Notes under the pieces: generated by a model
The model's input: the letters and a program-made list of their open reading frames with translations, nothing else
What the model was told of the DNA's origin: nothing
The model's database searches: none
Origin: SAR324 cluster bacterium
GTDB lineage: Bacteria > SAR324 > NAC60-12
DNA: 64,000 bases
Assembly (NCBI GenBank): GCA_028281495.1
Contig: JANQJU010000095.1
Span: forward strand, 25,206-89,205
Reading direction: 5' to 3'
Shown here: positions 7,213 through 62,338 of the stretch, piece after piece
How the letters are laid out: the number at the start of each line of letters is the position of its first letter
How positions within the stretch are numbered: position 1 is the first letter of the stretch
Translations under genes and position numbers: made by a program

Positions 7213-7213
7213 A

Positions 7214-7929: not shown

Positions 7930-8011
7930 ACCGAATTCCAGCGCCAAACACTGTGCACGTTGTCGTCGAATTTGATTTCTAAGTTCCATGGAGTCAGCCG
8001 TTGTGACATAG

Positions 8012-8149
8012 GAATCCCCAGCAAGGAGGACCCAGCCGGAATTGTACCGCTTAGCTTATGCCAAGTTGTATAAAAACGACGGGGCATTGACACCGGGATT
8101 GTCAGGCGAAACGGTGGATGGCATGTCCTTGGAGAAGATTGATTCGTAA
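8012..8149 (+). pseudogene. N-terminal fragment (~45 codons) of a group-II-intron-like / retron-type reverse transcriptase
   Basis: Translation between two stops reads ESPARRTQPELYRLAYAKLYKNDGALTPGLSGETVDGMSLEKIDS. The L.AY..(L/V)..N.GA.TPG....T.DGMS..KI pattern is typical of the region preceding RT motif 0/1. Nothing RT-like follows. Confidence 0.5.
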
Positions 8150-8296
8150 AGCCAATTCAGAAGGCTAAAATTGTCGTGCAGTAAGTGAAATCATACGAAT
8201 GTAAGAATTATTGTTAATAAACTAATAGTTTATAAATTAGGTTTTCACTGTAACTTTGCTACAGAGATCTATAATTGAATTATAGTTTTTCAAAGC

Positions 8297-9934
8297 ATGA
8301 AGAATGGTTCATCTGAGGGAGGGGTTATGTCTTGGAAACAACGATTGCTATCGTGGTGTTTGGTTTTGTTGGCCGTGTTGAACATAGCGGGAACCTGCGA
8401 CACAGAAAAAACGTATTCGTCGACCAAGTTGACGATTGTCAGTGGCTCGGAAAACAAAATGCTGGAAGATCTGATTCAAGAGTTTGCTGAGCGCAAACGA
8501 ACGACGATTCAGGTGGAATACCAAGGCAGTGTGGATATTTCCAACCTGATACGACAAGGCACTGCCAATCCCTATGATGCGGTGTGGCCTGCCAATAGCA
8601 TCTGGATCAACTTGGGAGATACCCAAGGAGTGATTAAGCATACAGAAAGTATCTTGCGTTCTCCGGTAGTGTTTGGAGTCCGACAAAGTAAAGCTCAAGA
8701 GTTGGGATGGAATCAAAACCCAGTGACCGTTGCCGACATCTTGACCGCTGCTGAATCGGGTCAATTGAAATTTGCGATGACCAGCGCAACCCAATCCAAT
8801 TCAGGAGCCAGTGCCTACCTGGGTTTTCTTTCGGCATTTGCCGAAAGTCCCGATGTTTTGTTGGAAACCCACCTTCAGCAGTCGGCGGTTGTTGACCGTG
8901 TAAAACGGCTATTAAAAACCATCGATCGGTCCTCGGGGAGTTCCGGTTGGTTGAAGGATCTGATGTTGGAATCGCGAGAAGGACAGTATGATGCAATGGT
9001 GAATTATGAGGCGATGGTGATTGAATACAATCAACATCTTGGCAATCGTGAACCATTGTGTGCGGTTTATCCGGTGGATGGGTTGGTTGTAGCAGACAGC
9101 CCGTTGGGTTATGTGAATAAAGGGGATGTCGAGAAAGAACAGCTATTTCAAGAATTGAAAGCGTATCTCTTATCAGACGCAGTCCAGAACGAATTGATTA
9201 AGCGAGGGCGTCGTGCCGGCGGGTTATTTGGGTTTGACTCCAGTAAAACCAGTGCGGATGTCTTCAATCCCGGCTGGTGTATTGATGTAGACCGCACACT
9301 CACCTCGGTGCGTGTGCCTTCACAATCGGTGATTGAGGAAGCCTTGTTATTATACCAAGAGCGATTGCGAAAGCCTTCCTTTACTGCGTATGTGTTGGAT
9401 TATTCAGGAAGCATGGCCGATGCTGGCGAAGCCGATATGAAAGCGGCAATGGCGTTATTGCTGGATCAAACCCAAGCGCAAGAACATTTGTTACAACCTA
9501 CGCCACGAGATATTCATCTCGTAATCCCCTTCAACGGAGCACCTATTGGCATTTGGCAGGTGCAAGGTAACGATCCCCAGGAGTTGAAAGCCTTGTTGAC
9601 CAAAATCCAACAGCTTCCGGCAAACGGCGGGACCGATATTTATTCTCCAACGGGCTTAGCCCTCGAACTCATTGCCACGGCCGATGTGAATCTTCAGGAT
9701 TATTTTCCGGCAGTGATTTTAATGACTGATGGAAAATCCGAGATGGAGATGAATGATTTATTTAATCAACATCCATCGTATCAACCCCACCAAGATATTC
9801 CGGTTTTTGGCATTGCATTTGGTAATGCCCATGACAGCCAATTGCGAGAAATTACTAACTTTGCCCGAGGGCGTTTATTTGATGGAAAACGCAACTTGGT
9901 TCATGCCTTCAAACAAGCCAAAGGCTACAATTGA
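8297..9934 (+). CDS. Secreted periplasmic-binding-protein-like domain fused to a von Willebrand factor A (vWA) domain
   Basis: N-terminal signal/TM segment (a start at 8327, MSWKQRLLSWCLVLLAVL, after GAGGGAGG is likelier). The C-terminal half has the MIDAS motif YVLDYSGSM, GGTDIYSPTGLAL and AVILMTDGKSE. Confidence 0.7.
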   Translation: MKNGSSEGGVMSWKQRLLSWCLVLLAVLNIAGTCDTEKTYSSTKLTIVSGSENKMLEDLIQEFAERKRTTIQVEYQGSVDISNLIRQGTANPYDAVWPANSIWINLGDTQGVIKHTESILRSPVVFGVRQSKAQELGWNQNPVTVADILTAAESGQLKFAMTSATQSNSGASAYLGFLSAFAESPDVLLETHLQQSAVVDRVKRLLKTIDRSSGSSGWLKDLMLESREGQYDAMVNYEAMVIEYNQHLGNREPLCAVYPVDGLVVADSPLGYVNKGDVEKEQLFQELKAYLLSDAVQNELIKRGRRAGGLFGFDSSKTSADVFNPGWCIDVDRTLTSVRVPSQSVIEEALLLYQERLRKPSFTAYVLDYSGSMADAGEADMKAAMALLLDQTQAQEHLLQPTPRDIHLVIPFNGAPIGIWQVQGNDPQELKALLTKIQQLPANGGTDIYSPTGLALELIATADVNLQDYFPAVILMTDGKSEMEMNDLFNQHPSYQPHQDIPVFGIAFGNAHDSQLREITNFARGRLFDGKRNLVHAFKQAKGYN

Positions 9935-9971
9935 AGCATCGTATTACACGGAACTATGAAGGAGACGGATC

Positions 9972-10610
9972 GTGTTTGCATTACGCTGGTTGCCACGGGA
10001 GTTGTTATCGGGGGGGCTATCATTAGGTGTCTATCTGGGTATGGAATGGGGGTTAACTTTAGTGTGGTGGGTGGATGTAACGGCCGCTTTATTGACTTAC
10101 GGAGCCTTGCATCTCGTGATTGCTCGAAAAAAGGAAGCTGATGAAATTCAGGCCCGGGGGCTTTCCCTCACCCAAGCTGAACTGCATGCTAAGGTGAACA
10201 ACGGGCTGGACATGGCCCGACAATTTGCAGCATTGGCCAAAACGATTCCGCAGTCGCCTATGGCTCCTGTGCTACAGGACATCAGTCAAGTGGTGGAACA
10301 GATCTTTAACCATTTCTTAGACGATCCAAGCGACTATCGAAAAGTCTTTGCCTTTGTGGATAACGACATCTCTTTAGGTTTAAAACTTGCCGAGTTCTAC
10401 ACGAAATACAGTCAAACTCCGGGATTAGGATCCGAAGAACAGCAGATGTTACAGGATAAAGAGAAAGTGATTCACAAATTTTTAGAAGGATGCCAGCAAT
10501 GCTATCGCAAATGTTTGGAAGATGATTTTCAAGAGTTTGACCTCCATGCCGACTATCTTCATAAATTGTTGGACTCTGAATCATTCACCATCACGACCGG
10601 AAAATATTAA
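9972..10610 (+). CDS. XpaC-like (5-bromo-4-chloroindolyl phosphate hydrolysis protein family) membrane protein
   Basis: GTG start after AAGGAGA. Two N-terminal TM helices plus a helical domain, ~210 aa, encoded in the same operon upstream of a TelA-like gene (one PBP-like gene lies between them), recalling the xpaC-yaaN pairing known in Bacillus subtilis. Confidence 0.45.
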   Translation: MFALRWLPRELLSGGLSLGVYLGMEWGLTLVWWVDVTAALLTYGALHLVIARKKEADEIQARGLSLTQAELHAKVNNGLDMARQFAALAKTIPQSPMAPVLQDISQVVEQIFNHFLDDPSDYRKVFAFVDNDISLGLKLAEFYTKYSQTPGLGSEEQQMLQDKEKVIHKFLEGCQQCYRKCLEDDFQEFDLHADYLHKLLDSESFTITTGKY

Positions 10611-10619
10611 GGAGGCTGT

Positions 10620-11714
10620 GTGAAAAAATACCGTACCCTGGCAGGACTCGTCATTTTGATTGTGGGAATTGGTATCGTTGCTTTGTTGCAGCTACTCGAT
10701 AACGATGTCTTCCAAGAAGTCCGTGCCCCCGATGCGATCACTGTGAAAGGCTATTATGGAGGGGAAAAAAGGGCATTTTTGCACAACGAAGCGGTTCTGG
10801 ATTTACTGAAGCAGCAATATGGCATCACCTTAGACCTCACCCGTCGAGGGAGTGTAGCTATGGTCACAACCGAATCCTTGGCGGGCTTTGATTTTGTGTG
10901 GCCTTCCAATCAGGTCACTGTGCAGTTGTTCGAGCAAACCCATCCGACGGTTACCTTTAAATCTCAAATCGTGTTCAATTCCCCGTTGGTGATTTACACA
11001 TGGGGGGAAATTGCGGAGGCTTTGGAACAACGCGGTGTGGTGGAAAAGCGAGGTGAGCATTATTACATCTTTCGCGCTAAAGAACTGATGGAATTGGTGT
11101 TGCAGAAAACCAAGTGGTCAGAGTTTGGCCTGAACCGTTGGGGAAGTATTGCTTTAGTGACCACCGATCCCCGTAAATCCAACTCAGGCAATATGGGGGC
11201 AGGCCTGATTGCCAATTTGCTGCAGGGCGAAGTGGTGTCCTTAGACACCCTACCTCAAGTGGAATCACAACTGGTGGACTACTATAAATCATTGGGATTG
11301 ATGGAAGCGTCGTCAGGCACATTGTTTGACAAATTTATCAAATCCAATGGATCGGTAGGCATGATTTTGGGATATGAAAACCAAATGATTGAATTTTCCA
11401 TTGAGCACCAAGAGGCCTTAGAATTGATTCAGCAGCGGGTTCGTGTGCTGTATCCCGAACCCACGATCATGACCAGCCATCCGTTAATCTCTCTGAATGA
11501 AAAGGGGCAACGCTTGCAACAAGCACTCGAAGATCCTCAAATCCAAGAACATGCTTGGCGAGATCATGGGTTCCGTACCGGGATCAGCGGTATCCAAAAC
11601 AATCCTAATGACTTGAAAGGGTTGAAGGTTCCTGAATTCATCACCAACGCCATGCCCATGCCCAGTGCACGGGTCATGAGTCGGATTATCGAGACTTTGA
11701 ATCAGAACCTCTAA
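10620..11714 (+). CDS. Membrane-anchored periplasmic-binding-protein-like protein, paralogous to the N-domain of the 8297 gene
   Basis: GTG start after AAGGAGG and an N-terminal TM helix. ITVKGYYGGEKRAF...FDFVWPSNQV parallels LTIVSGSENKML...YDAVWPANSI in the vWA protein. Confidence 0.55.
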   Translation: MKKYRTLAGLVILIVGIGIVALLQLLDNDVFQEVRAPDAITVKGYYGGEKRAFLHNEAVLDLLKQQYGITLDLTRRGSVAMVTTESLAGFDFVWPSNQVTVQLFEQTHPTVTFKSQIVFNSPLVIYTWGEIAEALEQRGVVEKRGEHYYIFRAKELMELVLQKTKWSEFGLNRWGSIALVTTDPRKSNSGNMGAGLIANLLQGEVVSLDTLPQVESQLVDYYKSLGLMEASSGTLFDKFIKSNGSVGMILGYENQMIEFSIEHQEALELIQQRVRVLYPEPTIMTSHPLISLNEKGQRLQQALEDPQIQEHAWRDHGFRTGISGIQNNPNDLKGLKVPEFITNAMPMPSARVMSRIIETLNQNL

Positions 11715-11746
11715 ATTTTCTCCACTTCCTTTGTTAAGAGGTTGTT

Positions 11747-12898
11747 ATGAGCACAGAAACTTCTTCGACCAGCACGGATCTGACCTTTCCCGGATTACAA
11801 AGCAAACAAGAATTGATTGCCACCGACTCGTTCACTCCAGAAACCTGGAAACGGGTGGAACAAGAAGTGGACAACATTCCGTTTGTGGTGGGAGGTCGTT
11901 TGGCGCTCAACACGACGATCCCACTAACCTTTGGGGCCAAACCTCAGGAGGCGTTGGGGCAGTTTTTGGAAACACTGATTGGCGATATGAAAGCCAAGGA
12001 TGCAGGCATTGCGGGTGATTTGGCTATTGAGTTAGCCCGTGGCATCGAAATGATGAACTTGCATCAAGTGAAAGAAGAACTCACGCAACCACAAAGCATG
12101 TTAGGTAAATTGTGGAAGTCGTTGACCTTTGCTTCCTCGGCCATTGAGGGTTTTTGGGCGCAACATCAAGAGGTGCTTAAGTTGATTGATGCGATCAAGC
12201 AAAAGACGGAAACCCGAAAACGAGCCTTATTGTTCGATTTGGAAAAACTCGACAAACTTTTGGCTCAGTATCAGGTGCATGCGGATGAAGTGCGGCTCTA
12301 TATTGCGGTAGGGGATCGTGTGTTGGAAAAAGCGGAATCCGAGTTTCAAAGCTTGTCAACCAAAACACAAAACGATCCCGAACGCGTGGCAGCTTTGAAG
12401 GATTTCCGTGATTGGATCACCAGTTTTGATGTGCGATTGTTGAATCTGAAAGTTGCTTTCACACAGTCAGTGACAACAGCACCAACGAAAGTCCGTTTGA
12501 TTCAAGAGTCTCAAAAGGTGGAAATTCAGAACATCATTGAATCGATCTTGTTCGATTTACCCAAATTGATGGATGCAATCATCCAAATGGGCAGCTTGTC
12601 CAACATCAAAGAGGCGCAAGCAGAAGACGATGCACGAAGGAAAGTGACGGAACAGTTGGATTCCTTGAGTGCGGAAGCCATACAGCAGGCCTACTTACAA
12701 TCCAAATCGAGTCAAGGTCGCGCATTAGAAACGGTGGAACGGTTGAACACTGTGGCCGAGCATCTGGTCCAAACCTTGGAACAAGGCAAAGCGTTAGAAG
12801 CCCAAAATGAGGAAAAACGCCAGCAAGCCGAAGCGGGGTTGATGGAGATTCAACACAAAGTAGCGCAAGCCTTAGAAGACGCCTCGCGTCCGGCATAA
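11747..12898 (+). CDS. TelA/YaaN-like toxic anion resistance family protein
   Basis: 383 aa and all-helical, which fits TelA family size. Operon context with the XpaC-like gene supports the call. I cannot verify a family-specific motif by eye. Confidence 0.5.
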   Translation: MSTETSSTSTDLTFPGLQSKQELIATDSFTPETWKRVEQEVDNIPFVVGGRLALNTTIPLTFGAKPQEALGQFLETLIGDMKAKDAGIAGDLAIELARGIEMMNLHQVKEELTQPQSMLGKLWKSLTFASSAIEGFWAQHQEVLKLIDAIKQKTETRKRALLFDLEKLDKLLAQYQVHADEVRLYIAVGDRVLEKAESEFQSLSTKTQNDPERVAALKDFRDWITSFDVRLLNLKVAFTQSVTTAPTKVRLIQESQKVEIQNIIESILFDLPKLMDAIIQMGSLSNIKEAQAEDDARRKVTEQLDSLSAEAIQQAYLQSKSSQGRALETVERLNTVAEHLVQTLEQGKALEAQNEEKRQQAEAGLMEIQHKVAQALEDASRPA

Positions 12899-13033
12899 CC
12901 CACACGAGTCCAGCCGATCTCAGTTCAAGAGAACTTAACTGAATTTTCGAGGTTTGAAAGAAGTCCACCAATATGGCAAAGGCCAACAATGTTTAGGGGA
13001 CACCCCCCAGCAAGCGCTAATATTTTTATCGAA

Positions 13034-13537
13034 TCATAGTAATTCAACTAAGCTTTTACGAACTGCTGCGATTGTCATGAAGAGTTTATTAGGCGTATCG
13101 TTAAACGGGGTGAATCCAAACTTTTTATAGAAGGCGATGGCTCCTTCTTTGGCATCAACGATAACCAAGGGGAATGCTACGGTTTCACTGGCTAACAATA
13201 ACTTTCTGAGAGCATCAATTAAAAGCCACTCTCCATACCCCTGGTGCTTGTAACGTTGATCGATAGCTAGTCGAGCAATCAGTCCTCCTGAACTAGCACT
13301 TTGATGTTTTTTCCGCAATTTTAAGGGTAAAGCCGTTAGGTCAATAGGTGTCATTGTGAGAGTGTAAAATCCAATAATACGTTCTGGGAATTTTTCGTCT
13401 TCCAGCACAAAAGTACGAGTATTATCTTTTTTTGCTTGTTGACTAGCCATCACTCTCAAATAATTATTTAGAGCATAAACTCCACAGTCGAAGTAGTTTC
13501 GATCATGCTTATTTTTATCCAATAGAACTGTAATCAT
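13034..13537 (-). CDS. GNAT-family acetyltransferase toxin (TacT/KacT-like)
   Basis: 167 aa. The N-terminal KHDRNYFDCGVYALNNYL matches H-D-x-x-x-F-x-C-G..LN.YL of DUF1778-associated GNAT toxins. The acetyl-CoA loop is RYKHQGYGEWLL. It overlaps the upstream antitoxin gene by 4 nt. Confidence 0.85.
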   Translation of the reverse strand: MITVLLDKNKHDRNYFDCGVYALNNYLRVMASQQAKKDNTRTFVLEDEKFPERIIGFYTLTMTPIDLTALPLKLRKKHQSASSGGLIARLAIDQRYKHQGYGEWLLIDALRKLLLASETVAFPLVIVDAKEGAIAFYKKFGFTPFNDTPNKLFMTIAAVRKSLVELL

Positions 13538-13821
13538 GACTGAACTTTCCCTTTATAACGTTGGGCAGCTTGTTGTAACCGATTATTGGGGTGGACTTGG
13601 TCATCTAATGCTTCAACAAGCATTAAAGCATCGCGTTGCGAGAGTTTAAGGGTACGCTCACGCTCTATAATACTTTTCGCTTTTTCTATTGCTGCACTGA
13701 GCACAAACGAATTAATGCTAGATACTCCAGACAGTGCTGCAGCTTGAGATAATAATTCTTGAGTATCAGTATCTACTCTAGCGGTGATACGAGGACTAGT
13801 AGACGTCATAATAATCTCCAA
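13534..13821 (-). CDS. DUF1778 (TacA/KacA-like) ribbon-helix-helix antitoxin
   Basis: RITARVDTDTQELLSQAAALSGVSSINSFVLSAAIEKAKSIIERE is the canonical DUF1778 pattern, translationally coupled to the GNAT toxin. Confidence 0.85.
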   Translation of the reverse strand: MEIIMTSTSPRITARVDTDTQELLSQAAALSGVSSINSFVLSAAIEKAKSIIERERTLKLSQRDALMLVEALDDQVHPNNRLQQAAQRYKGKVQS

Positions 13822-13922
13822 TGTAGGTGTTATTTTGTTACATTACTTAGAGTATAGTAACATTAGGTTTTAATGCCAAGATGTGCCACTTTGACACATT
13901 TATGGCGAATCAGTCAATCCAC

Positions 13923-14192
13923 CTAGCTTGTTTTGAGATTTATTCGTCGGGGCTGTGCGGGAGGTGATTGGTGACTCAAAATCAAAGTTTGTTGCGTATT
14001 GATAGGCAGGACATGAACCCCCTTGAACGAATAGAAAACCCATCGAGCCGTAGGCCGCTTCGTGGGCTTGCTTTTCTGGTCAGGGAAAGTTGCTTGATGG
14101 TGTTCCAACTGCGTTCGAATTCGATTCTCCAAAGCCGCGTAGACCAGTAAACACAGATCATAATCATCATTAAGTTGGAACCTATTATTCAA
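13923..14192 (-). mobile_element. IS4/IS1634-family transposase C-terminal fragment
   Basis: KPTKRPTARWVFYSFKGVHVL resembles the conserved G-K-P-T-x-R-P-T-x-R-W-(I/V)-F block of IS1634-type transposases. The 89-aa remnant has no catalytic region. Confidence 0.45.
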
Positions 14193-14258
14193 AAACTTAC
14201 AATTTGGACTGAGGAAAAGCGGATAACAGATGGATTGGGGGAAAGGAGTGTAATCGAA

Positions 14259-17200
14259 TTATCCATGGTTGGGCGGGATATTGAGATCAGGAATCTTTAA
14301 AGCATTGCCTATGAAGACCACATTAAACGTAGTAATTTCTATTTTATATCGCTCCATCAATTCTTTACTCCTTGGATGCAATCGAATTTTCCAAGTGGCA
14401 TATAGGGGCGGCCAATTGGTATCGGCCCGAAAGCTATCTTTTCCCGATTGTCGCTTTGACCGTGTGATTTCCCCATTGATAACCTTCACTTCAGACAAAT
14501 ACCGCGTCGAATCTGTACTCTGAAAGTATCGTAGCTTGGTTGGAATTTGATCTGAAATTGGGTCAATGGAATTCTCATCATTTGGATTCACGATCACTTT
14601 ATCCGCAACCAAATTTTGGCAATGGGTTTCTATATCAATCTCCAATTTTTTATCTGACAGAGATTTACTATTGCTTAGCTCCAAATCAATATCCACATGC
14701 TCAACTCGAAAGAAATATAACTTTCTGGTCTCTTCAAAAAATGAAGTATCTGACATTAAATCCAACTCAACAGTTTCTTGATTATTCAGTTGGTCTATTA
14801 GAGCTTGTTTTTCAATAGAGTAGATGACTTTTTCGCCCTTTATCATGCTTTTGGTCATTGGATAGTTTCTGTTGATGATTTTACTTGTCGTCAGATCTGA
14901 CAATTGGTTCTTAAGTTCAAAGGCCTTTTTTTGAATATCAATGAGTGCAATATCCAGTTCAGATTTGCGCAAGAATCGATAGAAAGAGGCGTTCTCGTAA
15001 TCAAGAATCAGTTGAGTAAGCTCCCGATACAAATCAATTTTTGATGTTAAAGTCATTAAGCCCAGTGCCTCGACCTGGGCCTGTTCGGCTTTACTTTCGT
15101 CCTCGAATTCCTTGGCAAGCTCCTTTTGCTGGCGGAGATTTTCACATTTCAACAATTCCACTTGGAGTTTGATTTCCAAATCAAAACGCTTCTCCATCAA
15201 ATTAAAGCCACCTTCGGCCTCGAAACTCATCTGTTCATAGGCTCGCAAAAAGTTTCTTGCACTTTCCTCATTGTAGATATTGTGGATACGGTCTCTTATT
15301 TCGGCATGATTTGTTTTCAATCTCACCAACCAAGCTTTTGCTTCACTCAATTGTTTGATGGGGTCCGGTTCCAGTTCAAGGTCATTTCGTAAACCTGAAT
15401 TTGCGAACAGACTGGAATCGGTTTGATCCAAATCTATGGAAATATTGTGTGCTGCGGACTTCAATTCATCCAAAAGGGGCAAGTATTGGTTTTTATAGTT
15501 TGCTAGCGCGATGAATGCGTTGGCCAATTTTTGCCCGTCGATAGTGCCTTGATGAAAGTCTTGCAAATTTCGTTTAAGCCACATTCTAGACCTATTTTTT
15601 TTCCAACCCTTGTAAAATGATTCCTTCAATTTTTTGCCATAAGGATTGTCCTTGAATGATTTTTCAATATCATCTTTAAGTGTTTCAATTTCTTGGGGCC
15701 ATTTATCGTTTATGTTTTCATTCAATAGATTGAGTTGCTTTATTTCCTTATCGAGTCTCTGTCTATCTTGTGCTTGGTTCTCTCCAGAAGCATTGTCCAT
15801 TTCCTCCTTTTTTTGACGAATGGTGTTTTCGATCTCGGGATATTTTTGTTGGTTAGCTGCGATCCAATCTTCCAACTGTTGTTTTCTTTCTGCGTTTTTA
15901 CCTAGGTTATCAGAATACATTTTGTTGAAGCCTTGGCTGTATTCGTCCCCTTTTTTTGAAATGATTGTTGATGAAATTTTTTCAAATGATTCAACGATGC
16001 TTTTTGTATCCTCATCTTGTATTAGAGCTTTAATACCAACTCCAACGCCACCCACAACAGCCCCCAAAAATAGAGGTGCCGTTGCTCCACCCGTCGCAAT
16101 GGTGACCACTAGGCTTCCCAACATACCAGCAACAGACTCAATGGCATTGAATATCAATTCTTGCCTTCGCTTTTTTTCGAGAGCATCCAATTGGATTTCA
16201 AGTACGTGAAGCAAATACGGTGTGGAATCTCCCAAGTCTTGGATAGCTAGAGACACTTTTTTGATTTCTCTGTCAGTTTGACCAATTGTCTTCTTATAAA
16301 GTTCAATAGTTTCTTGAGAACTATTCCTGGTATTCACTTGAATCAGGTGATGATACTCAGCATTTTTTTTGAACGATTTTAAGAGGGTTGTTAAATTATC
16401 GAGGTTTGTTTCTTTTGATTCCAAAATTTGGATATTTTCGGAAACAAAAATTAGCTTTTTGTAATACTCATCTACATAATACTCTGGAATAGGGTATGGA
16501 TTATCTCTATCTCCGGTGGCTAAAAACTTTTTAACAATGCCGTCCAGGAAGTTCTTCACTAGTATTTTTTGAGAGTTCAAATTTTCGTTTTCAAATTTAC
16601 ATGAACTCAACCAATTGACAATAGATTGTGCTTCTAAATAGTATTTTGACAGTAACAATTCATTGATTAAATCCGATTGAGCGATCACAAATCGTTCTAA
16701 ATTTGGATGTTTCCGCCAAAGCTTTTGGTCTGTTCCAAAGTAGTGAGGGTACAAAAAAAGGGGTTTTTTCAGTGAATAATCTCTAGAAGCGAGTCGTTGT
16801 TCTTCACTAAAATTTCTTGCTGCGTTGATTGTTTGCGTTGAATTTTTTTCAACTTTGTGAAGACTACCTTCACCACTGTACCAAACCTTGAATGAGTAGA
16901 TTGGAGCGCTTTTATTGGATTTAGATAATTGAATATAAGAGTGATCCTTGGTTTCTACTTTGCTTAGTTGGGTAAGTTTAGAGTCAGCATCTATTTTGCT
17001 ATTTGAATGATATATATTCTGATAAGTTATTTGTAACCCGCTATATTCATCCAAACAGAATAGTTGATTAGGATCTTCATCATCAGGAATTACAAAAATT
17101 TGTCGCGCAACAATAGTTAAGCTCGTGCTGACTAAGTTCCGTAGCCATGTGTTCTTGGAGCTTTTGTCTATCAATAGAGTGTCACAGATAATAAACACAT

Positions 17201-17495
17201 TGAGTAAACAGGGTATGTCAGTTCGATCAATTGGATCTCTTTGTTGGTCTGTATGAGTATTTTTTTTTAGTTGGTACTGATTGTATAGCTTATTCAGGAT
17301 ATCTTGTTGCTTTGCAAAACTAAAAATCCATTGCTGAGCTACAAATGTTGTTGCCGTACAATACTCTTGATCAATTTGTCTTGTATGATCGTCATTGCCA
17401 GTTACTTCTTCTGGAATAAAACCATGTCTGTCTAACCAGAATTGATAGTCATCTAGAGTATCGAATTGAAGTGGATCAAGAATTTTTGTTTGCAT
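14259..17495 (-). CDS. Orphan 1078-aa protein with central glycine-zipper membrane segment and long coiled coils
   Basis: AT-rich ORF overlapping the upstream 421-aa ORF by 20 nt. AGMLGSLVVTIATGGATAPLFLGAVVGGVGVGIKAL is a Gly/Ala-zipper hydrophobic hairpin flanked by Lys/Glu/Gln-rich heptad-like segments. I recognise no catalytic motif. Confidence 0.6.
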   Translation of the reverse strand: MQTKILDPLQFDTLDDYQFWLDRHGFIPEEVTGNDDHTRQIDQEYCTATTFVAQQWIFSFAKQQDILNKLYNQYQLKKNTHTDQQRDPIDRTDIPCLLNVFIICDTLLIDKSSKNTWLRNLVSTSLTIVARQIFVIPDDEDPNQLFCLDEYSGLQITYQNIYHSNSKIDADSKLTQLSKVETKDHSYIQLSKSNKSAPIYSFKVWYSGEGSLHKVEKNSTQTINAARNFSEEQRLASRDYSLKKPLFLYPHYFGTDQKLWRKHPNLERFVIAQSDLINELLLSKYYLEAQSIVNWLSSCKFENENLNSQKILVKNFLDGIVKKFLATGDRDNPYPIPEYYVDEYYKKLIFVSENIQILESKETNLDNLTTLLKSFKKNAEYHHLIQVNTRNSSQETIELYKKTIGQTDREIKKVSLAIQDLGDSTPYLLHVLEIQLDALEKKRRQELIFNAIESVAGMLGSLVVTIATGGATAPLFLGAVVGGVGVGIKALIQDEDTKSIVESFEKISSTIISKKGDEYSQGFNKMYSDNLGKNAERKQQLEDWIAANQQKYPEIENTIRQKKEEMDNASGENQAQDRQRLDKEIKQLNLLNENINDKWPQEIETLKDDIEKSFKDNPYGKKLKESFYKGWKKNRSRMWLKRNLQDFHQGTIDGQKLANAFIALANYKNQYLPLLDELKSAAHNISIDLDQTDSSLFANSGLRNDLELEPDPIKQLSEAKAWLVRLKTNHAEIRDRIHNIYNEESARNFLRAYEQMSFEAEGGFNLMEKRFDLEIKLQVELLKCENLRQQKELAKEFEDESKAEQAQVEALGLMTLTSKIDLYRELTQLILDYENASFYRFLRKSELDIALIDIQKKAFELKNQLSDLTTSKIINRNYPMTKSMIKGEKVIYSIEKQALIDQLNNQETVELDLMSDTSFFEETRKLYFFRVEHVDIDLELSNSKSLSDKKLEIDIETHCQNLVADKVIVNPNDENSIDPISDQIPTKLRYFQSTDSTRYLSEVKVINGEITRSKRQSGKDSFRADTNWPPLYATWKIRLHPRSKELMERYKIEITTFNVVFIGNALKIPDLNIPPNHG

Positions 17496-18741
17496 CAGAC
17501 TCCTTGTTTGTAACAGCGTTATCTAAATCGTCTAAAAAAACAAAAAGTGTTTCAAGCCGGGCCTCAACGAATCGAATGAGATGGAAATTGTCCCACATAA
17601 AGGCTTCGATCTCTTGTGTACTGAAACTATTCGTGCCTCTTATATGTTGTAAGTGTTCCTCAAGACTGATTCGGGTGCTGACAATCCAATCTTTGCCGCT
17701 CGTTTTGCTGCTCTTTACCTCCTCTTCAACATCATACCACTTATAAAAATTGTTGAGTTTGGTAATTAAATTTTTCAGTGAAGCAATATGGGTCTGATAG
17801 GTTTCCATAAAATCTTGGCAACTTTGATACCAACAAATGGTGAAGCTATTTACAAAGAATTTGTTTTCGGCTTCGTCCAACCCTGCGATCATGTTGTCAC
17901 ACATTCTTTGAAAATAAAAAGGGATGTTCCAATGGCCCGCTTCTTTGCGCTTTCGAATATCGGCCTTTTTTTCTTGGAAATTAAACTTAAGTGAATTGAG
18001 TGAGAAGTCGGATTTTTCCAAAACTATTTCTTTCTTAAACTTTCTCTCATAATCGTCACCATTATCAAAGAAACCTTTAGCTTCATGGTCGCCCAAGAAA
18101 TAATATACTTTGAGACTATCTATATAGGATGTTGGTTGAAGATTATCGTTGATTATTGTCAACATTTTATCGTTTTCACCTTGGAAATCTTGTTCGATTT
18201 TAATCAATGATTTCTGAATTCTGTCTAATTTATCTTTTATAAATTTTATCAATTCGATTAGTTGATCGATTTTGAATACGACTTCTGATTGGCTAAAAGT
18301 CCCTGGGTTTTCAAGCTGTTCTTTAAAATATTTGATTGTTTCATTAATTGTTTCTTTTGGTTGAGGATGCTTCTCACTGTCTCCGAACCTTAGTTCATAA
18401 AAATCGTTTTTTAGGTTTCTTAATCCACCTTCCTCAAGTTTTTCTCTAGATATAGAGTCAAAAGTATTGATGGATTTGATTAAATCCAGATAGTCCATTC
18501 TTTCGGAAACAAAGTGGATTTGATCATAACAATGTTGAAAGATACGATCTTGACTAGAGGGGGCAATTAAATGAGATTTGTTTTCTACCCAAGCTGGCGA
18601 ATTTTTAATCCACTCTTCGATTTGTTTTCTTGTGTATGGTAACGCAAAATTGAATTTAGCTTTTTCAGATTTAGCCGCAGGTAAACCGGCAAGAGTTTTT
18701 AACGAGTCATATTCTTTTTGTGTAATGCCACTAACACACAT
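17476..18741 (-). CDS. Orphan 421-aa protein, first gene of the two-gene island operon
   Basis: Long uninterrupted AT-rich ORF, same strand as the 1078-aa ORF and overlapping it. Predicted soluble and helical, with no recognisable domain. Confidence 0.55.
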   Translation of the reverse strand: MCVSGITQKEYDSLKTLAGLPAAKSEKAKFNFALPYTRKQIEEWIKNSPAWVENKSHLIAPSSQDRIFQHCYDQIHFVSERMDYLDLIKSINTFDSISREKLEEGGLRNLKNDFYELRFGDSEKHPQPKETINETIKYFKEQLENPGTFSQSEVVFKIDQLIELIKFIKDKLDRIQKSLIKIEQDFQGENDKMLTIINDNLQPTSYIDSLKVYYFLGDHEAKGFFDNGDDYERKFKKEIVLEKSDFSLNSLKFNFQEKKADIRKRKEAGHWNIPFYFQRMCDNMIAGLDEAENKFFVNSFTICWYQSCQDFMETYQTHIASLKNLITKLNNFYKWYDVEEEVKSSKTSGKDWIVSTRISLEEHLQHIRGTNSFSTQEIEAFMWDNFHLIRFVEARLETLFVFLDDLDNAVTNKESDANKNS

Positions 18742-18851
18742 AATAGAAGTCCTACGATTTGATGTTGATCCGTCAAAGGGTGAGTCGGGTTATTGACGTT
18801 GGGAACAACCGTTTCTTATCAAGTTGGTGATCCATTTAATGAATGGTGAAT

Positions 18852-19188
18852 TTACCTGAAATCTGGAATCGCAACGGCTGTGGTGAGGCTTTTCGGAAGC
18901 CCATGTTTTGCTAGGGAACCCCCGGTAAAGCTGGGATCATCCGTGACCTCTCGAATCGCATAGTCTGGCATGGGAAAGTTAATCAGTAGAAGGGGCCCTG
19001 CCATCGATGGGCCGTGCCTCTCTCAATCTCAGTTGTGATCCTGTCACGTATAAATCCGTAATCACTTCAGTCGTCACCACCAAATGATGAGGCACTTCAC
19101 GGCATAGCCAGCGGCGCTCACGTTCAACCGCCATATATTTCGTTTTGGGGAAACCCAGTTCTAATGCTGTCTTTGGATTGATATTCAT
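18852..19188 (-). pseudogene. CYTH-domain protein, disrupted
   Basis: The N-part AVERERRWLCREVP...ITDLYVTGSQLRLREA (ExExK-like start) ends in a stop at 18979. A different frame downstream reads PDYAIREVTDDPSFTGGSLAKHG, the typical CYTH C-terminus. The middle of the domain is missing. Confidence 0.5.
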
Positions 19189-19570
19189 TGAGACTCGTCT
19201 TGATGCTCAACTATGATTACTATGATATAATTACTATGAATTGATAACTGCAAGCTCTGGTTCGTCGCACACTCGACGTCGGTTTTTTGAACCGCATCGA
19301 TGAAAGCCTCGAGCTTATCAGGATCGAGACGCCCCCTTGTACGGACACCTGAGCACAAATCCACCCCGAACGGACGCACCGTTTTCATGGCTTCACCGAC
19401 ATTGTCCGGTGACAATCCACCCGCAAGAAATACCGGATGGGAGATACGTCATACAAATTCATCACTCACTGACCAGTCATGGATTCGGCTCGTCCCACCA
19501 TATTCTGGAGTGCTTAACGAAGGCCGTCTAGAATCGAGTAAAATTGAGTTAATGGCATCGCTACTAATAA
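19185..19570 (-). pseudogene. trpF: Phosphoribosylanthranilate isomerase, 5'-truncated and frameshifted
   Basis: One frame reads AINSILLDS...GGTSRIHDWS. A second frame reads PVFLAGGLSPDNVGEAMKTVRPFGVDLCSGVR..GRLDPDKLEAFIDAV. Together these match the C-terminal ~90 aa of TrpF, and no N-terminal half is present. Confidence 0.7.
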
Positions 19571-19580
19571 ACACATTGAT

Positions 19581-19602
19581 AATTACTACATATGTAGTAA
19601 TT
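19581..19602. promoter_or_regulatory. Perfect 22-bp palindrome AATTACTACATATGTAGTAATT, putative BlaI/MecI-type operator
   Basis: Lies 48 nt upstream of the blaI-like start. It contains the TACA/TGTA dyad typical of BlaI/MecI operators, and its core TACTACA-N2-TGTAGTA recurs at 21231-21254. Confidence 0.6.
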
Positions 19603-19649
19603 AAGAGAAAATCCGTATCTTTAAACGATAAATCTGAAGTCATGGAACG

Positions 19650-20054
19650 ATGAAAAAGAAACCATTAACCCTCGGACCGTTAGAAATGGAGTTGTTGGGG
19701 TTATTTGAAGACAATCGAGAATTGTCGGTTCGCGATGTTCAAGCGGAACTGAGAAGCCGAAACAATGAATTAGCGTATACAACGGTTATGACGGTCTTAG
19801 GCAGGCTGTATGATAAGAATCTCTTGAATCGTCGTAAAGCAGGGCGGCAATATATCTATTTTCAAGCACAAGAAACCCCTACTACAGGAAAATCATTTTT
19901 GAATCAGGTCAGTCATGCCTTGTTTCACAATCAACGGTTAAAACCGATTCTTTCCCTATTGGAAGAAGATGAATCTCTTACCGAACAGGAGTTGTTGGAG
20001 TTAAAAAAACAAGTGGAGCTTAAAATTCAGAAAATGAAAAAGAGTGAAAAATGA
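19650..20054 (+). CDS. blaI: BlaI/MecI/CopY-family winged-helix repressor
   Basis: 134 aa. LGPLEMELLGLF...LSVRDVQAEL...LAYTTVMTVLGRLYDKNLLNRRKAGRQYIY is the penicillinase-repressor fold pattern. It overlaps the downstream M56 peptidase gene by 4 nt. Confidence 0.85.
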   Translation: MKKKPLTLGPLEMELLGLFEDNRELSVRDVQAELRSRNNELAYTTVMTVLGRLYDKNLLNRRKAGRQYIYFQAQETPTTGKSFLNQVSHALFHNQRLKPILSLLEEDESLTEQELLELKKQVELKIQKMKKSEK

Positions 20055-21190
20055 TCGACTTCACGCTGATGAGTACGAACCTCATTATCAATTCTATACT
20101 TTCCTTTTGGATGGCTGCTTTGATCATTTCCATTAGCCTGAAAATCGTACCTTTGGGAATCAATCGAGGGAAACTCACCATCCTTCTGTTGCCGCTGGTG
20201 GTCCTAGTTTGGGATTGTTTGCAAGGGATCCCATCGAATTCCATTCTGTCGTTAGGATATGAAAAAGCTCAATGGATTTTTGCACATAAGATGGATCCTG
20301 GAATCAATCTGGGTGGAGCTATCGCAACATGGTTAGGGCCAACATTTGCGGTCAATTTTATCCTTTATCTGGAAACGCCAGCCGGTAATTATTCGATGAG
20401 TTATGTTGATTTTATTTTGCTATTCATGGATCGACGAGAAATTTTCATACTATTGTTGGTCGGGAGTCTTTTCATCATCTGTATTTCTTGTGTTCGAATT
20501 TTGCGACGGGCCTTCCATTATTATAGATTTAGCCAGCAGACTGGCTCCTTGCCAAATCCGACTCACGTTGTGCTGACACAAAAAATAGGCCCACCAAGAA
20601 AAATCCCCATTTTTCAGTCCAATGATCAATCGATGATTCCGTTTGCCGGAGGAATCATAAAACCCTTCATTCATATTCCGAAGTGGCTCGATTCAGTCCT
20701 CACCTCTCAAGAACAAAATGCTGTTCTTCAACATGAATTGGCCCATATTAAGCACCGAGACTTGATCCTCTTTTATGCTCTACAGTTTTTAACGGATCTC
20801 TTTTGGTTCATTCCAGGCATCTCACGTTGGAATAAAAAAATTTTATGCTTCATTGAACAACTAGCCGACCAAACCGCCATTCGTTCTGGAGTTGAACCTA
20901 CAGATTTGGCGTCTGCCATGATCAAATTGAAGCAGCACCACCTGAACTCAAACCAAGTATTTGGGATGTCTGTCAGTCCAAACACCATGTTTCAACAAAG
21001 AATCAATCTCTTATTACAACCCCCTCAGCTTTCCAGTTGGTTTGCTTCTACGTGTTGGGGTAAAATCGGAATCGGTTTCTTTTGGTTTTGGACATGTCTT
21101 GGTCTACAAGCAAACTTCCTGGGGAACCATGATTTAACCCCCCCCTTTCAGATGCCGGTGATGACTCTAATTTATCAATTATTTATTTAA
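20051..21190 (+). CDS. M56-family (BlaR1/MecR1-like) membrane zinc metalloprotease lacking a C-terminal sensor domain
   Basis: Multiple TM helices and the HExxH motif in LQHELAHIKHRDL. At 379 aa it is too short to include the ~250-aa penicillin-binding sensor domain of classical BlaR1. Confidence 0.8.
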   Translation: MIDFTLMSTNLIINSILSFWMAALIISISLKIVPLGINRGKLTILLLPLVVLVWDCLQGIPSNSILSLGYEKAQWIFAHKMDPGINLGGAIATWLGPTFAVNFILYLETPAGNYSMSYVDFILLFMDRREIFILLLVGSLFIICISCVRILRRAFHYYRFSQQTGSLPNPTHVVLTQKIGPPRKIPIFQSNDQSMIPFAGGIIKPFIHIPKWLDSVLTSQEQNAVLQHELAHIKHRDLILFYALQFLTDLFWFIPGISRWNKKILCFIEQLADQTAIRSGVEPTDLASAMIKLKQHHLNSNQVFGMSVSPNTMFQQRINLLLQPPQLSSWFASTCWGKIGIGFFWFWTCLGLQANFLGNHDLTPPFQMPVMTLIYQLFI

Positions 21191-21230
21191 TCACCTACAA
21201 AACAGGAGGGTTAATAAATTTTTGTAACTT

Positions 21231-21254
21231 AAAATACTACACTTGTAGTATTTT
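21231..21254. promoter_or_regulatory. Inverted repeat AAAATACTACA-CT-TGTAGTATTTT, second putative BlaI-type operator
   Basis: 11-bp perfect arms, ~70 nt upstream of the 21322 start. It shares the core TACTACA-N2-TGTAGTA with the palindrome upstream of blaI. Confidence 0.6.
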
Positions 21255-21321
21255 AATAATTAAAACAAGGATTGCAGGGGGCTATTTCTCTTCAATCATT
21301 ACGTTACAAAGGAGAGTAATC

Positions 21322-22584
21322 ATGAATCGACATATGCCAACCGCCATTTCATTGATATTAGGAATGGCTTTAGTTTTCATAGCTTCTTGTTCAACCACTA
21401 GCCCGTATCTTGATGTATCAGACCAGGAAAAACGGATAGAAATTTTAAGCAAGTGGTTAGAGTCGGAGCGAATTAAAAGCCATATCGCAGGAATGTCCAT
21501 TGTGATTGTACAAAATAACCGGGTACTGCTGAAACAAGGTTTTGGGTGGTCAAATGTTGAGGAGAAAATACCTGTAACCCCCAAGACGCTCTTTCCTATG
21601 GGTTGTTTAACAAAAACATTCACAGCAACACTCATTGCCAAGTTGGTTGATGAAGGTAAATTAGATTGGGATGATCCTGTGGCTAAGTATATTCCTGGTT
21701 TTAATCTGACGATAAAGAGTGACCATGAGAATGATACTGTAACCATTCGAGATTTACTCACCCATCGGGTAGGGATCGGTCTAACATCTAACAAAGGCTG
21801 GAATAATATGACGAGCCTAGAAGAAGTGCTGACAGCATTATCTGAAGAAAAACCAGCCGCTAGATTCAGAACAAGTTATCTCGATAATATTGCCCTGGAT
21901 ATGGCTGCAGGAGTTTCAGCAGGTAAGGCATCAAATTTGAGTTGGGCCGATTCCTTAAAGACTTTTTTACTAGGGCCGCTTGAAATGAGAAATTCTCAGG
22001 ATTTGGTCCTGCTAAAAAAGAAAAAACTCCGTCAATTTACGAGTTATGATTGGATAGAAAAAGAAGAAAAGTTTAAGAGCATTCCTTGGAAAAACGCTTT
22101 TGTGGATAACAATCCAGCAGCAGGGTTGGTTTCTAATGCAGAGGATATGGGCAAATGGCTAAAGTTTCTATTGAATCAAGGCAAATTTAATCGCCAACAG
22201 GTTGTGAGTGCAGAACAATTACAAGAAACTTGGACCCCTCAGATTGATTTGCCATGGCAGTGGGCCGTTGACCTCAAATTTTCAAAGGGAATATTGGGTG
22301 GAGATGCCGCAGAATATTACGGAATGGGATGGGTGATTGGAGAGAAAAAGGGACAAAAAGTCATCGCGACGAGAGGGCGTTATTCAAAGTTCCGTTCTCG
22401 AATGGTTTTGCTTCCTGATACAAACGTTGGTTTTGTTGTAATGGGAAACTCCCCCGGACACAATTCGGATTTATATTCAAAGTTGATAGATAATATCTTT
22501 GAAGCTGTGTTAGGCAGCCGAAGCCACGACCCAAATGCGACACACGACCCACAACCACACATACCACTTCACCAAACCCGCTAA
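21322..22584 (+). CDS. Beta-lactamase/PBP-fold (class C / family VIII esterase-like) lipoprotein with Cys replacing the SxxK serine
   Basis: Lipobox LVFIASC. TLFPMGCLTKTFTATLIAKLVDEGKLDWDDPVAKYIPGF aligns to the F.(I/L)(A/G)S.TK.FTA...L...G.L.LDD.V..Y(L/I)P motif, but codon TGT (Cys) occupies the nucleophile position. The KTG/HTG box position reads TRG. Confidence 0.75.
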   Translation: MNRHMPTAISLILGMALVFIASCSTTSPYLDVSDQEKRIEILSKWLESERIKSHIAGMSIVIVQNNRVLLKQGFGWSNVEEKIPVTPKTLFPMGCLTKTFTATLIAKLVDEGKLDWDDPVAKYIPGFNLTIKSDHENDTVTIRDLLTHRVGIGLTSNKGWNNMTSLEEVLTALSEEKPAARFRTSYLDNIALDMAAGVSAGKASNLSWADSLKTFLLGPLEMRNSQDLVLLKKKKLRQFTSYDWIEKEEKFKSIPWKNAFVDNNPAAGLVSNAEDMGKWLKFLLNQGKFNRQQVVSAEQLQETWTPQIDLPWQWAVDLKFSKGILGGDAAEYYGMGWVIGEKKGQKVIATRGRYSKFRSRMVLLPDTNVGFVVMGNSPGHNSDLYSKLIDNIFEAVLGSRSHDPNATHDPQPHIPLHQTR

Positions 22585-22835
22585 TAAGCGAAGATCTTCG
22601 GCCTGAAGTGCTTTCGATCCGACGTACCAGATCGTCTTTCTCATCCAAATTGAAGTCGATTCGTTGATCGGTCACTTCGCTTTCCAAGTCACGTTGCTCC
22701 CGAAGCCGTTTGCCTTTACCCATTGATTCCTTTTAGTCATGAAAAACTTTCCATAACCAAAATTAACACCAATTCGCAAATGATTTGTGGATGGAGTCAT
22801 TTGTGGAGAAATCGTTTGAAAACCACAAAATTTCA

Positions 22836-23819
22836 TCAAAATCTTAATTGAAAAGTAAATCTTGGAGCCAAAGTTCTTGAAGATTCTGGATCATCAAAGT
22901 TACTGGCATCTTCTCCCGGCTTTGCCTTCATATCTTTGGCTCTTTGAAGGCGTCGACCATCCGTGATGGTATTTGCCCCAAAATGGATTGCTATGGCCAA
23001 ATCCAAATCAAAATTAGGATTTGCCCCGTGATACACCCAACCGGTATACATAGAATCTACAAAGAGAATAAGATCAAATTCTCCGTGGAGAAGGGTGAAG
23101 ATCACGCTAGAAACAAAATTGCTGCTCCAGCGAGCCATACTGTGAGAAAGTGAATCTTTAAAAAGATGATAGAACCAGTTCTGGATGATTCCTCGGCTGA
23201 GCAGTTCCTCTCCGATACTGGTTAAGTAGGCGTTAACTAAGGTCCAGTTTTGAAGGTCCTCTTTTGTATAGCCATCTGTGTGGTAAACAAACTTTGGAGT
23301 TTCCTGGGTTTCAGTTTGTAGGGCCACTCCAGGATAAAAGGTCGGTTCCAGAAGATAATCCCAAAACTTCAAAGGAGATAAAAAATAGCCATAAGTTTCA
23401 TTATTATACTCACAGGTTTTATCATACAGATCCTGGCTCGTAATTTGCCAAAAGGCAAAGTAGATTCTCCAATAGTTTGCTGCCATAAAATTTTCATATG
23501 GCATAAAAACATCGACCTGGTCTTCATGCCGATAAGGACCTCCATGCTCATCACTGGTGTCCCGGTAGATTTTTTCATCATCGGGTTCAAAATCTTTATG
23601 ATTACGAAAATAGATCGTGCGTTCCAGAGAAAGCCATCGAGTTATACCGAAGGTCAAGGCTTTATCATATTGTCCCAGCCTAGAGTACCCTACTCCTGGT
23701 AAAAGCGTTTCTATCGCCCAAGTGCCCCAGCATTTTGAGATAGAAGTGGCATTGATCGAAGTCGTTAGTACAAAATAGATGGCCACTGAAAGCGCGATAT
23801 CCAAATTTTTTTTAACCAT
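22836..23819 (-). CDS. CPBP (CAAX protease/bacteriocin-processing) family intramembrane protease
   Basis: Motifs EELLSRG (EExxxR), FTLLHG (FxxxH) and AIHFGAN (HxxxN) occur in order in the C-terminal half. There is an N-terminal signal/TM segment. Confidence 0.6.
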   Translation of the reverse strand: MVKKNLDIALSVAIYFVLTTSINATSISKCWGTWAIETLLPGVGYSRLGQYDKALTFGITRWLSLERTIYFRNHKDFEPDDEKIYRDTSDEHGGPYRHEDQVDVFMPYENFMAANYWRIYFAFWQITSQDLYDKTCEYNNETYGYFLSPLKFWDYLLEPTFYPGVALQTETQETPKFVYHTDGYTKEDLQNWTLVNAYLTSIGEELLSRGIIQNWFYHLFKDSLSHSMARWSSNFVSSVIFTLLHGEFDLILFVDSMYTGWVYHGANPNFDLDLAIAIHFGANTITDGRRLQRAKDMKAKPGEDASNFDDPESSRTLAPRFTFQLRF

Positions 23820-24039
23820 GATCCACTTTCTATTTTAAATATATAAGTTCTACCCAAACCAACTTCCGCCTTGAAGCTTGAAAAAACAATACTTGTTGGA
23901 TCCATGTTTGATATCAAACCCATTGATTTTCAAAGTTTTTTTCATGAACGGTTGGTATTCAGCACTGAACGGTAGAAAAAGTGAATATGGGTTATTCTGC
24001 TAACATTTAGATATCGCGAAAATTCTCAAATTTTATCAT

Positions 24040-25023: not shown

Positions 25024-25467
25024 AGAAGAGGCTCTACTTTTCTACAATGCCAATCCTCCAAACCATTCCGGTGTAACAAAGATTCCGCCCCTGAAAGAAC
25101 ACTCATCTCGGCCAGGAACACCGAAGTCCCACGATAACGGTTAGTTTCCGACTCATACGATTTTTCATTATCAATCATTTCTATAAACTGAATCTTTTAT
25201 TTCCCTCAGTATCAATGAAAAAGAGCTGTGTTAGCCGTCAATTCACAGCCTGCTCCAACATGACTTGGCTGAAATCCTTCGCTACCGATCTATTTGGGGT
25301 TCCGGCGAGGTACGCAGGCTCGTCGAGCTTATCTGACATCGCTGGAAGCGATCCGTATACCCCATGTTTCGCTCAACCTACGCTTCAATCAGGGAGATAT
25401 CGAAACAATGTTGAAACGTCTGACCGATGACATACTGGCACATTTCATTGAATGAGGGAGAGAGACT

Positions 25468-62330: not shown

Positions 62331-62338
62331 GAGGTCCA

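Follow-up and report, generated by a model that had tools for sequence, protein, structure and literature searches.

How did the stump of a tryptophan-biosynthesis gene come to lie between tracts of low-GC DNA, and does its loss say anything about the way of life of the bacterium that carries it? The question is raised by a stretch of 64,000 nt from a SAR324 cluster bacterium (GenBank assembly GCA_028281495.1, contig JANQJU010000095.1, positions 25,206 to 89,205), hereafter the window, in which remnants of a trpF-like gene and of a CYTH-like gene stand just upstream of a blaI-type repressor gene. An earlier note, made from the letters of this DNA, had described an AT-rich island at 13034-19650 that was bounded by the two wrecked genes, and had proposed that the organism either possesses a second trpF or is a tryptophan auxotroph or host-dependent. 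The results of the current analysis allow us to redraw this picture. The region from 13.0 to 25.2 kb consists of two low-GC blocks that enclose a short islet of dead genes, and with moderate confidence we read it as a variable accessory locus, shaped by successive horizontal acquisitions and deletions and not by a single island that entered a housekeeping gene.

Base composition and the anatomy of the dead genes

The GC content of the whole window is 44.9%, and it is distributed unevenly, as the values for five consecutive segments illustrate.

1-13033: GC 0.477
13034-18800: GC 0.374
18801-19580: GC 0.474
19581-25400: GC 0.398
25401-64000: GC 0.458

Maximum-likelihood segmentation placed change points at 13018, 18863, 19529 and 25223; the log-likelihood rose by 19, 20, 10 and 19, respectively. 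GC drops from 47% to 37% near the first of these, rises to 49% near the second, falls to 39.5% near the third and recovers near the fourth. Change points and tetranucleotide usage together delimit two blocks.

13018-18863: low-GC block 1, about 37% GC
19529-25223: low-GC block 2, about 39.5% GC

Outside 13034-25400, segments of equal length (n = 802) never fell below 0.417 GC. In tetranucleotide usage, block 1 lies at a distance of 0.337 and block 2 at one of 0.269 from the remainder of the window, compared to 0.139 +/- 0.026 for the controls (maximum 0.213), so that both blocks are outliers by 5 to 7.6 control standard deviations. GC at third codon positions (GC3) was 0.28-0.36 in the genes of block 1 and 0.48-0.54 in those of the left flank (the TelA operon). 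The stretch is compositionally foreign DNA. The fall in GC that had been noticed by eye is therefore real and significant, and it extends to tetranucleotides and GC3, although its edges had been misplaced, as the low-GC composition ends at 18863 and resumes at 19529. What lies between is the wreck of the CYTH-like and trpF-like genes, a 0.7-kb islet with a GC of 0.474, close to the 0.477 and 0.458 of the two flanks. The remnants are thus located outside the AT-rich DNA rather than inside it, and they do not bound an island but separate two low-GC blocks; the supposed right flank, from blaI to the LytTR gene and up to 25223, is itself AT-rich.

The islet and its right-hand border contain the following features.

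18852-19188, minus strand: CYTH-like pseudogene (triphosphate tunnel metalloenzyme family), present as N- and C-terminal pieces in different frames
19278-19565, minus strand: trpF-like (PRAI) pseudogene, C-terminal ~90 codons, recognised by Pfam, PDB and metagenome matches
19580-19603: perfect 24-bp palindrome TAATTACTACATATGTAGTAATTA with the core TACATATGTA, 47 nt upstream of the blaI ATG

The trpF-like remnant matched positions 154-192 of the 193 positions of the Pfam PRAI model (E = 5.5e-7) and residues 128-200 of Thermotoga maritima TrpF (E = 3e-13), in an alignment that runs straight across a stop codon. It is also 70-77% identical to full-length PRAI genes from metagenomes, which in turn match Pfam at 1e-26. 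The trpF-like frames consequently align significantly to TrpF, and the reduction of the gene to its C-terminal ~90 codons, as originally described, is confirmed by all three comparisons. The frameshift that was thought to split the stump was not found; the remnant is one minus-strand frame throughout (...DAINSILLDSRRPSLSTPEYGGTSRIHDWSVSDEFV*RISHPVFLAGGLSPDNVGEAMKTVRPFGVDLCSGVRTRGRLDPDKLEAFIDAVQKTD), interrupted by a single in-frame TGA nonsense codon at 19449-19451, where the relatives have Arg. The 5' ~127 codons are lost, which leaves residues ~128-216 of ~225, and conserved positions have drifted, e.g. GGTG to GGTS. Compared to TrpF (PF00697), the C-terminal third is alike, whereas the complete (beta/alpha)8 barrel and an uninterrupted frame are not present. 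Judged from these lesions, the trpF-like gene is a genuine pseudogene. Its homology begins at 19553-19565, i.e. 15-27 nt from the palindrome, so that the stump does adjoin the presumed control region of blaI at about the ~20 nt previously estimated; the palindrome itself is perfect over 24 bp and not over 22.

The CYTH-like gene has indeed lost its middle, as the earlier note had observed. The open reading frame (ORF) at 18979-19188 on the minus strand aligns, with 70-77% identity, to residues 1-67 of a family of ~178-aa proteins named "CYTH domain-containing protein" by JGI, and a second minus-strand ORF, at 18852-19004 and in another frame, corresponds to codons ~142-178 of the genes of this family with 51-74% identity. 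Between the two pieces ~73 central codons (~220 bp) have been deleted and the frame has changed, at a junction near 18988-18998; two substitutions affect otherwise invariant positions. On this anatomy the CYTH-like gene, too, is a genuine pseudogene. The profile of the family matches the solved proteins PDB 2FBL and 3TYP (NE1496 of N. europaea; E = 5e-10), the first of which we take to be NeuTTM, the CYTH tripolyphosphatase of Nitrosomonas europaea. The Pfam CYTH model is silent, as it matched neither the remnant (E <= 10) nor the full-length relatives P0007 and P0035 (E <= 0.01), and the copy in the window is without codons ~68-140. The CYTH membership of NeuTTM is stated in PMC3440374.

Origin of the mosaic

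We propose a series of layered events for the formation of this locus. An older accessory pair, a stand-alone trpF of the PRAI type followed by a CYTH-like phosphohydrolase gene, would have been present at host-like GC. The ~39.5% GC block, with its blaI, M56, PF00144, CAAX and LytTR genes, would then have arrived on one side, or an adjacent deletion would have run inwards, and trpF would thereby have lost its 5' ~127 codons, as far as the point 15-27 nt from the palindrome. On the other side, the ~37% GC block would have brought the orphan operon, the stump of an IS1634 transposase gene and the GNAT/TacA genes. The stranded pair would subsequently have decayed, trpF by its TGA codon and substitutions, and the CYTH-like gene by the loss of ~73 codons, the change of frame and its two substitutions. 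The locus shares with genomic islands and accessory hot spots the sharp shift in GC and tetranucleotides, a cargo of toxin-antitoxin (TA), insertion sequence (IS), regulator and orphan genes, the truncated genes at the junctions and the defence-rich surroundings. Unlike genomic islands, it has no integrase, no tRNA target and no direct repeats, and its two blocks differ from each other and surround a 0.7-kb islet of dead genes. Accessory patchwork of this kind is already well known; the locus illustrates its layering neatly and on a small scale, in that two distinct imports would have squeezed an older pair that was later lost.

Several observations weigh against the layered history. A search of the genome collection for synteny with the TelA flank yielded neither the source genome nor a close relative, and the order of events is therefore one that we infer. 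Each of the window proteins that we looked up forms a cluster of its own at 90% identity, and there is no support for a particular function of the orphan genes. The two remnants are most like genes of high-GC bacteria, so the islet may itself be an old import and not native to the host. In addition, Pfam scans of 13-26 kb were negative for integrases and recombinases, no tRNA gene was found in the window, for which both the Rfam and the tRNA scans were empty, and the boundaries lack direct repeats.

A second explanation, which we regard as possible though clearly less probable, is that the whole mosaic of 13.0-25.2 kb was pre-assembled on a plasmid, an integrative element or another donor and entered by one integration at a site flanked by the TelA operon and by the dehydrogenase/sigma-54 regulator genes. 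It would account for the fact that the closest relatives of the dead genes (70-77% identity) are found in other, high-GC lineages without a conserved context, as is usual for mobile accessory genes, and for the location of all seven genes and remnants of 13034-19565 on the same (minus) strand; the TA pair and the IS fragment are likewise typical of the cargo of mobile elements. A 19-nt inverted repeat (17 of 19 positions) further connects 13026-13044 with 19229-19247, and the 10-mer ATTACTATGA occurs there three times, one copy lying over the stop codon of the GNAT gene, where the left GC boundary is, and two in tandem in the spacer between trpF and the CYTH-like gene (19216-19247). Three copies of this 10-mer in 64 kb compare with 0.10 expected; the repeats may have been left by recombination or may have arisen by chance. 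The match between the arms of the inverted repeat goes no further than the 19 nt, however, and it was found post hoc, with an estimated p of 0.01-0.1. Moreover, the GC of the islet is host-like and differs from that of both blocks, Pfam scans of the region found zero integrase, relaxase or replication genes, and the plasmid records contain no match to the 1078-aa orphan protein.

The scenario of the earlier note, in which a single AT-rich island hit a native locus and wrecked a housekeeping trpF, with a second trpF, tryptophan auxotrophy or host dependence as its corollary, appears improbable to us. In its favour, the remnant is a true PRAI homolog, its full-length relatives have kept the KICC and LLDS motifs, which we take from T. 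maritima TrpF to contain the catalytic Cys and Asp, and other trp genes were not found among the window ORFs scanned. The genomic context of the relatives argues otherwise. We examined 80 metagenomic loci of trpF relatives, with at least 1 kb of upstream sequence in 41 and at least 1 kb of downstream sequence in 47. The closest relatives are PRAI genes of 216-230 aa that stand alone; they come from metagenome contigs, of soil and other origin, whose GC is 0.33-0.71 (median 0.62). Any given neighbour family was seen in at most 4 of the 80 loci, which included neither a trpB/trpA cluster nor a CYTH gene. The CYTH-like family was examined at 41 loci (38 from genomes and 3 from metagenomes); its neighbours vary, and trpF was within 6 kb in none of them. 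Its hosts are Reyranella and other Alphaproteobacteria, Acidovorax, Dyella, Rhodanobacter and Myxococcota, with a GC of 0.56-0.72. Both dead genes appear, from these contexts, to be accessory genes without a fixed neighbourhood that move horizontally. The serine hydrolase that stands beside trpF in locus L060 is only 20% identical to the hydrolase of the window; this corresponds to the superfamily level, and shared ancestry of the two was rejected on that identity.

Identity and composition point in the same direction as gene context. The remnant is 70-77% identical to genes of organisms with 33-71% GC; by our own estimate this is far above the expectation for vertically inherited TrpF between distant lineages, and it therefore points to horizontal spread. 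In addition, low-GC DNA is present on both sides of the wreck and not on one. The stump thus looks like a horizontally mobile accessory copy, and not like the housekeeping trpF. Since its clade consists of stand-alone PRAI genes without trp neighbours, it counts for little as evidence of tryptophan auxotrophy or of dependence on a host, and the step from the stump to such a way of life is not justified. The value of the locus is mainly cautionary in this respect, as the stump of a biosynthetic gene beside foreign DNA is not by itself a sign of auxotrophy or host dependence.

It is very unlikely that the pseudogenes and the jumps in composition are artefacts of assembly or sequencing, such as a chimeric contig or indel errors. 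The source appears to be metagenome-derived, Logan contigs of two runs break in the GNAT gene, and the frameshift in the dehydrogenase gene described below is known from one assembly. Against this, an independent Logan contig (run SRR20820735) is base-for-base identical to 13352-25559 of the window and spans the boundaries at 18863, 19529 and 25223 as well as both dead genes; two more runs yielded Logan contigs that agree with the window in every base across the trpF-blaI junction, and the 13018 boundary is inside other Logan contigs, from two runs. An assembly chimera is thereby rejected, with the reservation that all of these contigs come from one study. The lesions themselves comprise a 5' truncation, a ~220-bp deletion and a nonsense codon, none of which is a homopolymer indel. 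The contigs that break in the GNAT gene end at the same point, 13352-13370, which suggests a branch of the assembly graph that arises from a repeat or a strain variant.

Least probable of all is that 13034-19565 represents an integron cassette array without its integrase, the short repeats being attC core sites: the genes are all on one strand and a TA pair, orphans and context-free accessory genes also occur in chromosomal integrons, but this reading was rejected on spacer folding, the spacers downstream of the genes folding no better than shuffled ones (z of -0.9 to +0.9), and an integrase is absent nearby (Pfam scans) while the 3.2-kb gene is far above the typical cassette size.

Cargo of the two blocks

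Block 1 begins with a TA pair and a transposase stump, followed by two orphan genes.

13034-13537, minus strand: GNAT toxin of the TacT/KacT/AtaT type, 167 aa (Pfam Acetyltransf_7, 3e-9)
13534-13821, minus strand: TacA (DUF1778) antitoxin, 95 aa (Pfam TacA1, E = 9.8e-25, positions 1-79 of 80)
13822-13922: region upstream of the TA pair with two palindromes, TGTGTCAAAGTGGCACA and GTTACTATACTCTAAGTAATGTAAC
13923-14192, minus strand: 3' stump of an IS1634-family transposase gene (tblastn, NCBIfam)
14259-17495, minus strand: orphan gene, 1078 aa, predicted to be mostly helical, a long open frame with no homolog
17476-18741, minus strand: orphan gene, 421 aa, predicted to be soluble and helical, with no homolog

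In a phmmer search of PDB, the GNAT toxin gave full-length matches to KacT (5ZGN and 5XUN), to the N-acetyltransferases 6AJM, 6AJN and 6GTS, and to 5FVJ, with E values from 1e-19 to 9e-7. The antitoxin gene precedes the toxin gene and overlaps it by 4 nt. The upstream region (13822-13922) has a single-strand fold of -12.2 kcal/mol (z = -3.0), which 0 of 200 shuffles equalled, and is the probable operator of the TA pair. Both proteins, the gene order, the overlap and the palindromic promoter region are as in the TacAT, KacAT and AtaRT type II systems, and the pair showed no unusual feature. By analogy with these systems, the toxin would acetylate charged tRNA and would be restrained by the TacA antitoxin, an arrangement that would tend to stabilise the block. 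The adjacent transposase stump is 52% identical over residues 13-76 to ISSpu7/IS1634 transposases (tblastn against plasmids, E = 2e-13) and matches positions 418-465 of the 483 positions of NCBIfam transpos_IS1634 (E = 0.006). The element is incomplete; only ~64 C-terminal residues match, and a repeat search gave no matching terminal repeats. A scan of 12800-19800 for promoters and terminators returned counts equal to chance expectation and therefore supports no promoter call for blaI.

Block 2 is made up of a blaI-type operon, a serine hydrolase gene and two further genes, and is followed by a broken dehydrogenase gene beyond its right boundary.

19650-20054, plus strand: blaI-type repressor, 134 aa (Pfam Penicillinase_R, 1.3e-21)
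20051-21190, plus strand: BlaR1-like M56 peptidase, 379 aa (Pfam Peptidase_M56, 3.8e-15, residues 137-320)
21322-22584, plus strand: serine hydrolase of the beta-lactamase (PF00144) family (Pfam Beta-lactamase, 2.5e-55)
22836-23819, minus strand: CAAX/Rce1-like membrane protease (Pfam Rce1-like, 6.8e-9)
24040-25023, plus strand: LytTR-domain regulator (Pfam LytTR, 1.5e-15)
25468-26261, plus strand: short-chain dehydrogenase gene (Pfam adh_short), split by an apparent 1-nt frameshift near 25803-25808

The repressor matches the PDB structures of BlaI (1SD4) and MecI (1OKR) with E = 2e-5 to 1e-4, and the gene of the M56 peptidase, which has a weak M48 match besides M56, overlaps the blaI stop by 4 nt. 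The 24-bp palindrome upstream of blaI occurs once in the window, with 0.01 copies expected. Staphylococcal BlaI/MecI operators carry TACA/TGTA half-sites, and by analogy the palindrome is presumed to be the BlaI operator. From the membership of the two proteins in their families, BlaI would repress its own operon at this site until it is inactivated by the M56 peptidase. The repressor, the overlapping M56 gene, the beta-lactamase-family gene and the upstream palindrome are alike in the BlaI/MecI-BlaR1/MecR1 systems of Staphylococcus and Bacillus. The version described here differs in its sensor-less BlaR1, its hydrolase of the PF00144 (class C/esterase-like) family and its single copy of the operator. 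As Pfam recognised no penicillin-binding sensor or transpeptidase domain in the BlaR1-like protein, the signal is probably other than a beta-lactam. A search of the interval 25030-25460 gave no identifiable remnant. In the dehydrogenase gene that follows, the first ORF covers positions 1-94 of adh_short and the second positions 128-189; the frameshift between them was seen in one assembly.

The orphan operon and the surrounding window

The two orphan genes of block 1 overlap by 20 nt, which indicates an operon, and AGGA is present 8 nt ahead of the ATG of the 421-aa gene. The open frame of the 1078-aa gene comprises 1087 codons, compared to 193 for the longest frame in 300 shuffles, and the frames of both orphans are five to ten times the longest frames of shuffled island DNA. 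The positional GC of both is of the coding type, with GC1 > GC3 > GC2 in the 1078-aa gene. The larger protein has one Gly/Ala-rich hydrophobic hairpin, at residues ~446-495, and the smaller one has zero hydrophobic segments.

Neither protein has a recognisable relative in the collections searched. A word-indexed search of 5.8 billion proteins returned only self-matches or noise for both, and HMMER, run over the complete set of 1.84 billion representatives, found no homolog of the 1078-aa protein, which also matched no plasmid record by tblastn. Pfam, NCBIfam, PADLOC, PHROGs and PDB sequences gave no match to either protein. The two are not paralogous to each other or to other window proteins and contain no internal repeats, and single-sequence AlphaFold models were unusable (mean pLDDT of 35 and 46). 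Our best guess is that the operon encodes a soluble helical partner together with a large helical protein that would enter the membrane via its hairpin, in the manner of a toxin- or effector-like pair. We consider it doubtful, yet worth stating, that the pair constitutes a previously unseen two-component membrane-active system (toxin, effector or abortive-infection module), in which the smaller protein would serve as partner or chaperone, on a low-GC mobile block stabilised by TacAT. As it is without a homolog among about 15 billion predicted proteins, the membrane-active pair would, if true, be a new protein family. The operon is the sole element of the locus with discovery potential, as its long genes are intact and stand beside a TA pair in a defence-rich neighbourhood.

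It is highly improbable that the orphans instead represent the A subunit of a Tc (ABC) toxin in a diverged and split form, with the hairpin as the channel tip and the C terminus as the TcB-binding part. The suggestion stems from a visual resemblance of motifs to the C-terminal part of TcA, which tests did not bear out, and from a size near that of a separate C-terminal TcA-like protein of 1118 aa that is encoded by an Allocoleopsis plasmid; BLASTP, HMMER and hhalign also all set the post-hairpin RKQQLEDW against the 'RR.DDW' of TcA. The test set consisted of seven TcA-like C-terminal regions that were taken from plasmids by means of a motif. A hidden Markov model (HMM) of these regions scored the 1078-aa protein at -2.8 bits, below many shuffled versions, hhalign assigned a probability of 0.4% (E = 0.16), the best BLASTP match had an E value of 0.29, Pfam found zero Tc domains even at E = 10, and TcB/TcC genes are absent nearby. 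The Tc identity is, at the level of sequence, effectively refuted by the HMM, hhalign, BLASTP and Pfam results. The 1118-aa protein is an observation in its own right. It is annotated as "hypothetical protein" at 128680-132036 of plasmid NC_019739.1 of Allocoleopsis franciscana PCC 7113 (L127), carries the TcA C-terminal motif and comes after a separate neuraminidase-like protein, and it has the appearance of a Tc toxin A subunit that is split and carried by a cyanobacterial plasmid.

Beyond the mosaic, accessory and defence genes are plentiful in the window, among them a type I-E CRISPR-Cas system, a TIR protein and a MAC/perforin (MACPF) protein. The following genes are of note.

379-5121, plus strand: 1580-aa protein with a DNA/RNA non-specific endonuclease domain at residues ~1078-1196
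30855-32852, minus strand: 665-aa protein with a MACPF domain (Pfam, 2.3e-21)
52773-53195, plus strand: 140-aa ORF that matches the profile of the RNA 2'-phosphotransferase Tpt1/KptA
55095-56492, minus strand: pentapeptide-repeat protein with a C-terminal TIR domain
56587-59211, cas3; 59208-60674, cse1; 62339-63016, cas5: genes of the type I-E operon

The TIR gene is located directly upstream of the CRISPR-Cas operon, the two together occupying 55095-63773. The MACPF domain is uncommon in bacteria. The coding strand of 379-5121 is unusually A-rich, with an AT skew of up to 0.39, and the 1580-aa protein may be a polymorphic toxin. The 140-aa ORF matches positions 4-88 only of the 177-position Tpt1/KptA profile and may represent a further truncated gene, located in a patch of low GC.

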